Below, piece after piece: positions 3,616 to 4,510 of a stretch of DNA of 7,230 nt. Position 1 is the stretch's first letter. Every line of letters starts with the position of its first letter. The notes under the pieces were generated by a model that made no database searches, was not told where the DNA came from, and worked only from the letters and a program-made list of their open reading frames with translations. Made by a program: the position numbers and the translations under genes. Source of the stretch: a virus (Duplodnaviria > Heunggongvirae > Uroviricota > Caudoviricetes); IMG/VR virus record IMGVR_UViG_2547132270_000006, positions 1-7,230 of that record; one strand, written 5' to 3'.

Positions 3616-3654
3616 CTATCAGGCGGGGGAGCAAGATATATTCACGCCTGATAG
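3616..3654 (-). terminator. Perfect 10-bp inverted repeat (CTATCAGGCG / CGCCTGATAG, 19-nt loop) between convergent genes; possible terminator
   Basis: Arms at 3616-3625 and 3645-3654. On the minus strand it is followed by GUUAAUUGUUUAUUAUU; on the plus strand there is no U-tract. The proximal arm contains the TGA stop (3619-3621) of the 69-aa gene. Confidence 0.4.
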
Positions 3655-3828
3655 ATAACTCTCAAGATGTACATATGGATCAAGATGGACCTCGTCTTTA
3701 CTAAGCTGATCGATGACGATTCTCATCTTTTCAATCACTTCTTCTTTAGTTTCTCCAGAGGTAGAAAATGTAAATCGAATTCTAGCGGGTAAGACACATT
3801 GATGTGCTGTCATTTTAATCTCTTTCAT
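3619..3828 (-). CDS. Hypothetical small protein (69 aa)
   Basis: ATG at 3828 with a strong GGAGGA 6 nt upstream; translation MKEIKMTAHQCVLPARIRFTFSTSGETKEEVIEKMRIVIDQLSKDEVHLDPYVHLESYLSGVNISCSPA. The track's 97-aa ORF starts at upstream Mets with no ribosome-binding site. No family recognised. Confidence 0.55.
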   Translation of the reverse strand: MKEIKMTAHQCVLPARIRFTFSTSGETKEEVIEKMRIVIDQLSKDEVHLDPYVHLESYLSGVNISCSPA

Positions 3829-3915
3829 ATAAATCCTCCAGAAACAACACAACCCGCATGGAGGCGGGTTTAAGCTGTGTGGCGTAGTAACCACTCTTAA
3901 CATCATATTCAACTT

Positions 3916-3929
3916 TTTACGATCGTAAA
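3916..3929. promoter_or_regulatory. Perfect 14-bp palindrome TTTACGATCGTAAA (central GATC) overlapping a candidate sigma70-like promoter for the 69-aa gene
   Basis: Palindrome read directly. On the minus strand TTTACG (3929-3924), a 16-nt spacer and TATGAT (3907-3902) form a promoter-like arrangement about 75 nt upstream of the 69-aa gene start codon. Operator-like geometry. Confidence 0.3.
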
Positions 3930-3946
3930 GCGTTCGGGAAAAATTT

Positions 3947-4510
3947 TTAAAGCCGCATCAGTCGTTCCACCAGTTGCTCTTTACGGGCAACGATCCAGCC
4001 GTGTTGTTCCAGATAAAATTTGAACCGTTCCAGAGTGCATACCATCGCATCGGCGGGTACTTTTTCCGTGAAGTCGACCTGACCATGGTTATCGAAGTGG
4101 ATCAGTAATGCGCATCCATCATTTTCGGTGGGGGAGTTTTGTGTTGCTGGTGGCTGTTTCTGGCTGAAATAACAGTCTTCGAGTTTTTCGAACACTTCCC
4201 ACGCCAGATCGGTTTCGAGCATTTTGGCATGGCGGGCAGCGCCACGTTCTGTCCAGAGGATAAGGGAGCGGGCTTTGGGAGAGATGGGATTTTGTGAGTA
4301 GTTTAAAGCTACCCGCAATTCTTTAAGGTCATTACCAACAACTTTGAAAAAGTGTTTCCCTTCAACGAAGCGTACTTTGTTCTCATGATGATTCTGGCGA
4401 ATACGCACCGGCTCAGTGCCGTAAAGCTGCGCCAAAAGTTCGGTGGTAATAACAGGAATCTGGTTATGGGTGATCGGGGAGAGAGTTTCAACAGAAATTT
4501 GAGTTGTCAT
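3947..4510 (-). CDS. ORF6N/KilA-N-like domain protein (antirepressor/Roi-like DNA-binding family), 187 aa
   Basis: ATG at 4510 with AGAGGG upstream. N-terminal half (PVITTELLAQLYGTEPVRIRQNHHENKVRFVEGKHFFKV ... SLILWTERGAARHAKMLETDLAWEVFEKLEDCYF) matches the ORF6N pattern as I recall it; C-terminal about 80 aa unassigned. First gene downstream of tR'. Confidence 0.7.
   Translation of the reverse strand: MTTQISVETLSPITHNQIPVITTELLAQLYGTEPVRIRQNHHENKVRFVEGKHFFKVVGNDLKELRVALNYSQNPISPKARSLILWTERGAARHAKMLETDLAWEVFEKLEDCYFSQKQPPATQNSPTENDGCALLIHFDNHGQVDFTEKVPADAMVCTLERFKFYLEQHGWIVARKEQLVERLMRL

Follow-up and report, generated by a model that had tools for sequence, protein, structure and literature searches.

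The DNA analyzed here (the window) is the 7,230-bp contig AEJY01000065.1, which encodes a 187-residue ORF6N protein listed by NCBI under Escherichia albertii. It holds the Q-to-lysis part of a lambdoid prophage, carried on the minus strand, and our subject is the ORF6N gene (3947–4510, −) together with a 69-residue orphan open reading frame (ORF), p69 (3619–3828, −), which follow a Q-family late antiterminator gene (4789–5184, −). The minus-strand order is DUF968 protein, RusA, Q, ORF6N gene and p69, and past p69 lie a convergent DUF2441 gene (3064–3603, +), a phage-21-type holin gene and genes for a DUF1327 protein, lysozyme and Rz/Rz1. A prediction made earlier from the window (the original prediction) had joined the ORF6N gene and p69 in a compact, tightly spaced two-gene unit at the head of the late transcript. 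The segment probably consists instead of three independent modules that have become juxtaposed, i.e., an antirepressor cassette (4784–3947), a homolog of the late promoter pR' (3929–3842), and a cargo cassette (3828–2952).

The ORF6N protein and the RNA elements upstream of its gene

The larger protein is of the ORF6N type, as originally predicted, with a Pfam ORF6N match (PF10543) at residues 12–97 (E 2.4e-20, 73 bits versus a cut-off of 27.8), and PHROG 2379, annotated 'anti-repressor', covers residues 1–187 of 187 (E 3.5e-93). It comprises an ORF6N domain (about residues 1–118), a linker (119–134) and a conserved C-terminal domain (135–187). For AnrP (SL2578), the antirepressor of Gifsy-1, the comparison covers the two ends of the protein, taken from the primer sequences in Hershko-Shalev et al. 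2016 (PMC4825925). The N-terminus MTTQISVETLSPITHN is equal to that of AnrP at 16 of 16 residues, and the Shine-Dalgarno and start context GAGGGCGTCATTATGAC is the same as that of anrP, whose start lies behind GGAGGGCGTCATTATG; the last 17 residues (GWIVARKEQLVERLMRL in the window, GWIVIKRDLLAEKLATW in AnrP) share a GWIV...L motif and end at the same position. Full-length homologs in Salmonella are 72–82% identical. These matches place the larger protein among ORF6N-type antirepressors, and repressor binding is predicted for it from the family annotation. The idea of an antirepressor module thus holds for this protein, but not for its pairing with the 69-residue gene.

In the AlphaFold model, the N-terminal domain (to about residue 118) has predicted local distance difference test (pLDDT) values of 83–92 and the C-terminal domain values of 40–60; the linker is disordered and the C-terminal domain poorly defined. 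A Foldseek search of the PDB with the whole model gave no match with E ≤ 0.001, and a homolog search with the C-terminal domain returned mainly fragments, some of them labeled Rha-family regulators by their sources. In an alignment of the close family, the C-terminal 50 residues are almost invariant and form the most conserved part of the protein, while the most variable stretch, residues 32–80, lies within the ORF6N domain. Were repressor specificity set by the C-terminal domain, the opposite pattern would be expected.

The interval from Q to the ORF6N gene, 280 nt long, is not a pR'-tR' leader; it contains three full-length Rfam matches, all above their gathering scores and, like the other features of this interval, on the minus strand. 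A predicted sigma-70-type promoter, the equivalent of PisrK (TTGACC-18-TATATT, 4784–4755, 10 of 12 consensus positions), aligns with the −10 region of P1 Pc4 and with the promoter of a related Salmonella locus (L012). It is followed by an IsrK-type RNA (4748–4672; RF01394, 77.3 bits, gathering score 50, model positions 1–77 of 77), which is overlapped by a match to the a1/b1 targets of C4 (4761–4709; RF03163 c4-a1b1, 50.1 bits, gathering score 46.7) and carries an intrinsic terminator, found in a terminator scan (4693–4677). Next comes a C4-type antisense RNA (4646–4563; RF01695, 71 bits, gathering score 45, full length), which aligns with P1 c4 and the long closing stem of which is seen in the minimum-free-energy (MFE) fold. 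The original prediction of the ORF6N gene and p69 as the first genes after tR' does not agree with this layout: the terminator at 4693–4677, evidently taken for tR', is that of IsrK, and the homolog of pR', qut and the first late terminator is located downstream of the ORF6N gene.

A leader ORF of 36 codons (4642–4532), equivalent to orf45 of Gifsy-1, starts within the C4 RNA; its AUG codons at 4642 and 4630 correspond to positions +107 and +119 from the IsrK 5' end, and its stop codon is 22 nt upstream of the antirepressor ATG. An ATG at C4 position 5 is present in 13 of 13 RF01695-type loci examined, with ORFs of 15–61 codons in variable frame, and a start that is kept while length and frame vary fits a regulatory ORF and not a functional peptide. 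The translation-initiation region of the antirepressor (4559–4518) contains the candidate C4 target sites a2 and b2 and the Shine-Dalgarno sequence GAGGG (4522–4518).

The predicted pairing sites are as follows. Site a1 (UUGGAAC, 4723–4717) in IsrK recurs as a2 (UUGGAAC, 4559–4553), 42 nt ahead of the antirepressor ATG, and a1 and a2 are each complementary to a' (GUUCCAA, 4591–4585; C4 positions 56–62). Site b1 (GAGACCG, 4708–4702, with one G.U pair) has its counterpart in b2 (GAAACC, 4532–4527), 16 nt upstream of the ATG, and the two have their complement in b' (GGUUUC, 4603–4598; C4 positions 44–49). The same arrangement was found throughout a set of 13 systems, comprising the window, P1 and 11 loci from different species. 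In each of them, a 7-nt word of IsrK loop 2 is repeated about 40 nt upstream of the antirepressor ATG, and a word of 6–9 nt, located ~15 nt further on in IsrK, is repeated over or just before the Shine-Dalgarno sequence; a1 equals a2, b1 about equals b2, and the two words are complementary to C4 positions ~56 and ~44. At least nine different a words occur, and the b word is nearly unique to each system. Read from these words, the a and b sites and the C4 loops form a three-way set with compensatory covariation, and it is this covariation together with the Rfam scores, not duplex energies, that makes the case for pairing between C4 and its targets. Covariation of target and loop words is the known basis of P1/P7 heteroimmunity. 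The co-varying words suggest that many mutually non-cross-reacting 'immunity' specificities exist among enterobacterial prophages, which bears on cross-talk and heteroimmunity between co-resident prophages of Escherichia and Salmonella.

Carrying the logic of Gifsy-1 over to the window antirepressor, we infer a switch of the following kind. The promoter would make the short IsrK RNA, and some transcripts would pass the IsrK terminator into the C4-type RNA, the leader ORF and the antirepressor gene. Loops a' and b' of C4 would bind a2 and b2 ahead of the antirepressor Shine-Dalgarno sequence, and the start codons of the leader ORF would be hidden in the C4 stem, so that pairing and buried start codons together would keep antirepressor translation off in the lysogen. 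Sites a1 and b1 of IsrK would act as decoys; excess IsrK would lift the block, the leader ORF would be translated, and the antirepressor would be made by coupling and would then inactivate the prophage repressor, leading to induction. Promoter activity, RNA processing, translational control and repressor binding are predicted here from the literature or from the anatomy of the locus, as is the timing of p69 expression considered below. The partners of the ORF6N gene are thus located upstream of it, i.e., IsrK, the C4 RNA and the leader ORF, and on the corrected prophage map the antirepressor would be part of an RNA-controlled induction switch and not of the late operon.

The RNA-antirepressor cassette is also found in other surroundings. 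A C4 or sRNA-Xcc1 RNA is present upstream of the ORF6N relative in 22 of 34 species-representative loci, within about 70 nt in 21 of them, and the ORF6N protein occurs in 366 of 50,697 phage records. In PA2-type Stx2a phages, the cassette is located beside int/xis, far from Q. E. coli prophages with the order Q-isrK-C4-ORF6N share window positions 3863–4800 and then diverge; their antirepressor is about 89% identical at the protein level, and the next gene encodes a different, 65-residue protein and is followed by a methyltransferase gene.

Three side observations concern the RNA part of such cassettes. At seven loci (L021, L023, L025, L026, L032, L033 and L036), from Serratia, Brenneria, Symbiopectobacterium, Accumulibacter and others, sRNA-Xcc1 (RF02221) fills the C4 position, about 20–60 nt upstream of the ORF6N homolog; this RNA, which has no clan in Rfam, looks by its position like a C4 relative. 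In E. coli ECMA0423 (L044) and Shigella flexneri SFBU1023 (L045), positions 2248–2551 contain intact IsrK, a1/b1 and C4 elements with only the first 17 codons of the antirepressor gene, and the RNA part of the cassette appears to outlast the loss of the protein gene. Izhakiella australiensis (L013) has two IsrK-C4 pairs on opposite strands within 2.5 kb (38–226, −, and 2251–2449, +).

The late promoter homolog in the 118-nt gap

The ORF6N gene and p69 are 118 nt apart (3829–3946), with a promoter-like site and a hairpin in the gap, and hence are not tightly spaced. By homology to Stx phages, the gap contains on the minus strand a pR' homolog, a qut equivalent and a first hairpin (3929–3842). 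The −35 box (3929–3924) lies inside the palindrome TTTACGATCGTAAA and forms with the −10 box (3907–3902) a sigma-70-like site (TTTACG-16-TATGAT, 3929–3902), which is followed by the qut equivalent (3888–3881) and by the first hairpin with its T-rich tail (3870–3851). Of 5,426 complete E. coli genomes, 3,708 carry the 98 nt at 3935–3838, as do 346 phage records. The phi24B record, with which the element aligns base for base, labels this stretch as putative late promoter, qut and rho-independent terminator immediately behind Q, and the Ss-VASD record labels it putative PR'. In an Stx1 prophage, the element and the end of Q overlap, and stx1 comes next; in DLP12, a porin gene intervenes between Q and the element, and essD follows. 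A literature search with the sequence of the element found nothing.

The window Q (Pfam Phage_antitermQ, E 4.8e-52), the upstream neighbor of the antirepressor cassette, is of the H-19B/DLP12 type (PF06530), and it shares 85% identity with the Q of E. coli FORC_028, behind which pR' and stx1 follow directly. Since so similar a Q is directly followed by this element, the antirepressor cassette is, by homology, placed between Q and the predicted target promoter of Q. Phage 21 was considered as a model for the window Q and was dropped, since the repeat TGAGCA of the phage 21 Q-binding element is absent from both promoters and Q is of the H-19B/DLP12 type. The site at 3929–3902 had been predicted as a promoter belonging to the small gene; a sigma-70-like site is indeed present, but it is the pR' homolog and not a private promoter. 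Similarly, p69 is the first ORF behind pR', in keeping with a place at the head of the late transcript, but the ORF6N gene is upstream of pR'.

Transcription of p69 would start at pR' and would be constitutive if the first hairpin leaks, and otherwise dependent on the action of Q. The hairpin region has a fold z-score of −4.0. In the p69-linked copies the hairpin tail is T-poor (GTGTTGTTTC), in contrast to T8 in copies elsewhere, and if the first hairpin is leaky, p69 could be made from a constitutive pR' in lysogens. In the Stx phages of strain Sakai, the end of the PR' transcript was mapped 258 nt downstream of its start (PMC7547250), which is past the homologous first hairpin and, in phi24B, corresponds to the second of the annotated terminators. 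Should the pR' homolog be active and its first hairpin stop transcription, a ~55-nt RNA with two hairpins would result (3896–3840, −; MFE −22.8 kcal/mol, z-score −4.0). This putative leader RNA has no match in Rfam and is a possible counterpart of the lambda 6S/StxS leader RNA class.

The Q-pR' junction collects insertions, i.e., the porin gene in DLP12 and the isrK-antirepressor cassette in the window and in some E. coli, and in an E. albertii locus (L006:3413–3900) an ORF with a signal-peptide-like N-terminus is inserted between Q and the pR' element. Both this junction and the site just behind pR' appear to gather cargo.

p69, DUF2441 and alternative groupings of the genes

The start codon of p69 is preceded at 7 nt by a GGAGG Shine-Dalgarno sequence. 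The ratio of nonsynonymous to synonymous substitution rates (dN/dS) is 0.08–0.17 for homolog pairs with dS ≥ 0.37, indicating purifying selection, and because the homologs differ mainly at synonymous sites p69 is a real protein-coding gene. It is rare: clustering at 90% gives four groups among 5.8 billion (5.8e9) proteins, and at 50% a single representative is found among 1.84 billion (1.84e9; exhaustive HMMER scan). It is absent from all 5,426 complete E. coli genomes and all 50,697 phage records. The protein belongs to PHROG 11414, a family without assigned function, and has no match in Pfam, PADLOC, NCBIfam or PDB sequences. Its AlphaFold model, at low confidence (pLDDT 59), shows a strand, a helix and a strand, and Foldseek found no match to it in the PDB below E = 1.

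The recurrent neighbor of p69 is the convergent DUF2441 gene, which encodes a 179-residue protein (Pfam PF10386, 29 bits, cut-off 25; PHROG 5663). Both genes are found in four of the five contexts of p69, i.e., the window type, E. albertii L006, L010 and the metagenome locus L011, where DUF2441 has an internal stop; in all four, 15 nt separate the two stop codons. The fifth context, Salmonella L008/L009, retains a ~30-nt remnant of the DUF2441 3' end. An ORF6N gene is upstream of p69 in the window type and in L008 (L009 starts just upstream of p69), and is lacking in L006, L010 and L011. On the late strand, the far end of the cassette is marked by a terminator-like hairpin (2968–2952, −), just upstream of the holin gene. 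L006 shares the window sequence from the −35 box of pR' through p69 and DUF2441 to this hairpin, past which similarity ends before different holins; as the similarity stops there, p69, DUF2441 and the terminator at 2968–2952 form, by this comparison, one unit. Judged by position, the unit occupies the slot of stx in Stx phages. This rare cassette, in the place where Stx phages carry toxin genes, is the only truly uncharacterized element of the segment, and the evidence on it is thin.

Adjacency of this kind raises the alternative that p69 and DUF2441 are a functional pair, e.g., an effector or toxin with an ADP-ribosyltransferase (ART) fold, expressed from its own promoter, and a small acidic inhibitor or regulator, p69, with pR' transcription running antisense through DUF2441. 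The fixed spacing of 15 nt in four independent flanking contexts, with a remnant in a fifth, argues for such a pair, as do the constraint on both genes (dN/dS around 0.1 for p69, and 81–98% identity of DUF2441 across contexts) and the boundaries of the cassette, set by the pR' element and the terminator. DUF2441 is listed in the Pfam ADP-ribosyl clan, which includes toxins such as DarT and RES (PMC7955679), and it shows a weak match, in the region of a common FP..PSR...A motif, to PDB 2aua, a hypothetical protein of Bacillus cereus. However, the DUF2441 family, 2aua included, has no characterized member, and its place in the clan is by listing. Furthermore, a convergent layout is unusual among toxin-antitoxin pairs, and linkage seen in about five closely related contexts may reflect recent common descent. 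Distant DUF2441 homologs in phages (Klebsiella KP12, Gordonia, Streptococcus) lack p69, Salmonella retains p69 after loss of DUF2441, PADLOC has no match for either protein, and the p69 model is of low confidence. We therefore regard a functional p69–DUF2441 pair as unlikely. Rather doubtful, too, is the more specific proposal of a new effector/inhibitor or anti-defense cassette behind a leaky pR' hairpin, in which p69 would be constitutive in lysogens and DUF2441 silenced by antisense read-through.

According to another alternative, the IsrK promoter is itself the late promoter and IsrK a tR'-terminated leader, with the ORF6N gene and p69 as the first late genes. PisrK, which begins 5 nt past the stop codon of Q, matches the consensus better than any other promoter in the interval, a good intrinsic terminator ends IsrK, and Gifsy-1 has the same arrangement just after antQ. 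However, the Q that is 85% identical to the window Q is directly followed by the TTTACG...TATCAT element and not by isrK, and in 68% of E. coli genomes this element lies ahead of the late or lysis genes, as it does in DLP12 with its intervening porin gene. The isrK-C4-antirepressor cassette also occurs far from any Q, at int/xis in Stx2a phages and in P1, and in IsrK the first 40 nt form C4 target hairpins, which co-vary with C4, and not a conserved Q-loading region. A late promoter at this place is thus very improbable.

Likewise very improbable is a functional two-gene operon of ORF6N and p69, as a regulator with its partner or a toxin-antitoxin-like pair co-transcribed through the intergenic hairpin: the two genes share a strand, the T-poor tail of the hairpin could favor read-through, and the order ORF6N-pR'-p69 recurs once, in Salmonella L008, so that the two genes might be co-transcribed by read-through, but p69 is encoded by none of the 34 species-representative loci with ORF6N relatives and none of the 366 ORF6N-bearing phage records, p69 occurs without any ORF6N gene in three contexts, the ~89% identical antirepressor of E. 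coli prophages is followed by a different small gene, AnrP alone is enough for induction in Gifsy-1, and neither protein matches a toxin, antitoxin or defense model (PADLOC gives only weak matches of the ORF6N domain to PDC-S05). Adjacency of the two genes is confined to the window-type prophage and L008, and the larger one matches AnrP, which induces its prophage when expressed alone. With p69 absent from those 34 loci and 366 records, and located in the window beyond a late promoter and next to another neighbor, the originally proposed two-gene unit does not hold, nor is its suggested role as a toxin-antitoxin-like or anti-defense pair supported.

Besides the recurrence in L008, several points weigh against the preferred reading of a Gifsy-1-like switch followed by an independent pR' homolog and cargo cassette. 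The prophage switch is known here from sequence alone, and the AnrP comparison is confined to the ends of that protein. Duplex energies of the window C4 with its targets are no better than those of shuffled sequences (80 of 500 and 62 of 500 shuffles reach the observed values), and the b sites of the window are short (6 nt for b2), with the G.U pair in b1. Coupling may be weaker than in Gifsy-1, as the leader ORF does not overlap the antirepressor gene, and IsrJ is lacking, with no RF01393 match at E up to 10 in 3500–4850. The labels pR', qut and terminator in the phage records are 'putative' annotations by the depositors. Finally, the terminator strength of 3870–3851 is uncertain, and this first hairpin may be leaky.

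Further features of the window and of related sequences lie outside the three modules. A 198-residue ORF downstream of Rz (121–717, −) matches anti-repressor Ant and Rha-like regulators in PHROG (E about 1e-12), with no match in Pfam, and is a second antirepressor-like gene within the window. An 87-residue ORF at the window edge (6948–7211, −) has a precomputed Pfam Rem (PF27490) match. On the longer contig of the same prophage (L002:1906–2118), a Hok/Gef gene is present upstream.

Comparison with Stx phages, Gifsy-1 and P1

In H-19B/933W/phi24B-type Stx phages and in DLP12, a pR'-qut-hairpin element precedes the first late-strand ORF, and the window shares this arrangement. In contrast to those phages, the 0.85-kb antirepressor cassette comes between Q and pR' in the window, the tail of the hairpin is poor in T, and the cargo is p69/DUF2441 and not tRNAs with stx or a holin gene.

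The antirepressor cassette has its closest parallel in the antQ-isrK-orf45-anrP-isrJ region of Gifsy-1, where the long transcript is translationally silent (Hershko-Shalev et al. 2016, PMC4825925). IsrK supplied in trans raises anrP translation more than 100-fold, via orf45, and AnrP increases antQ-operon transcription and, with no need of the isrK locus, induces the prophage (PMC4825925). The window cassette is likewise located directly downstream of a Q-family antiterminator gene and begins with an IsrK RNA with its own (in the window, predicted) promoter and a terminator, followed by a C4-like RNA (STnc1160 in Salmonella). The AUG codons of the leader ORF at +107 and +119 correspond to the orf45 start codons (A107 and 119–121; PMC4825925, Table 1), and the antirepressor genes are identical in the 16 N-terminal residues and in the Shine-Dalgarno and start context. 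The stretch bounded by the IsrK 5' end (4748) and the hairpin end (3842) measures 907 nt in the window, compared with ~910 nt for the isrK-orf45-anrP-isrJ transcript (PMC4825925).

The two regions differ, however, in several respects. The window leader ORF has 36 codons in place of 45, and its stop codon is 22 nt before the antirepressor ATG, whereas the two overlap (ATGA) in Gifsy-1. The window Q is of the PF06530 H-19B/DLP12 type, and the place after the antirepressor gene is taken by the pR'/qut/hairpin element of Stx/DLP12-type phages and not by IsrJ. In Gifsy-1, IsrJ has its own start site and terminator at this place, and it might be the late-promoter leader RNA of AntQ; in the Salmonella locus L012, neither IsrJ nor a pR' homolog is present. 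The specificity word of C4 differs as well, being UUGGAAC in the window and UUGGUCU in L012.

Similar organization is seen in the immI region (c4-icd-ant) of P1 and P7, where a promoter, a1/b1, the C4 RNA and a2/b2 over the ribosome-binding region are followed by the antirepressor operon. The window leader aligns with P1 immI from the −10 box through the first start codon, and the P1 record annotates the a1, b1, C4, a2 and b2 sites. In contrast to P1, the window has no icd-like ORF, with the icd ATG of P1 aligning with the start codon of the antirepressor itself, and the antirepressor is an ORF6N protein without detectable similarity to Ant1 (best BLASTP E 6.7). The window system thus differs from the known ones by the lack of IsrJ and icd and by its shorter, non-overlapping leader ORF, and the present results leave the understanding of those systems unchanged. 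Its antirepressor and switch belong to a known and experimentally studied kind, represented by isrK-anrP of Gifsy-1 and by immI-type control in P1.

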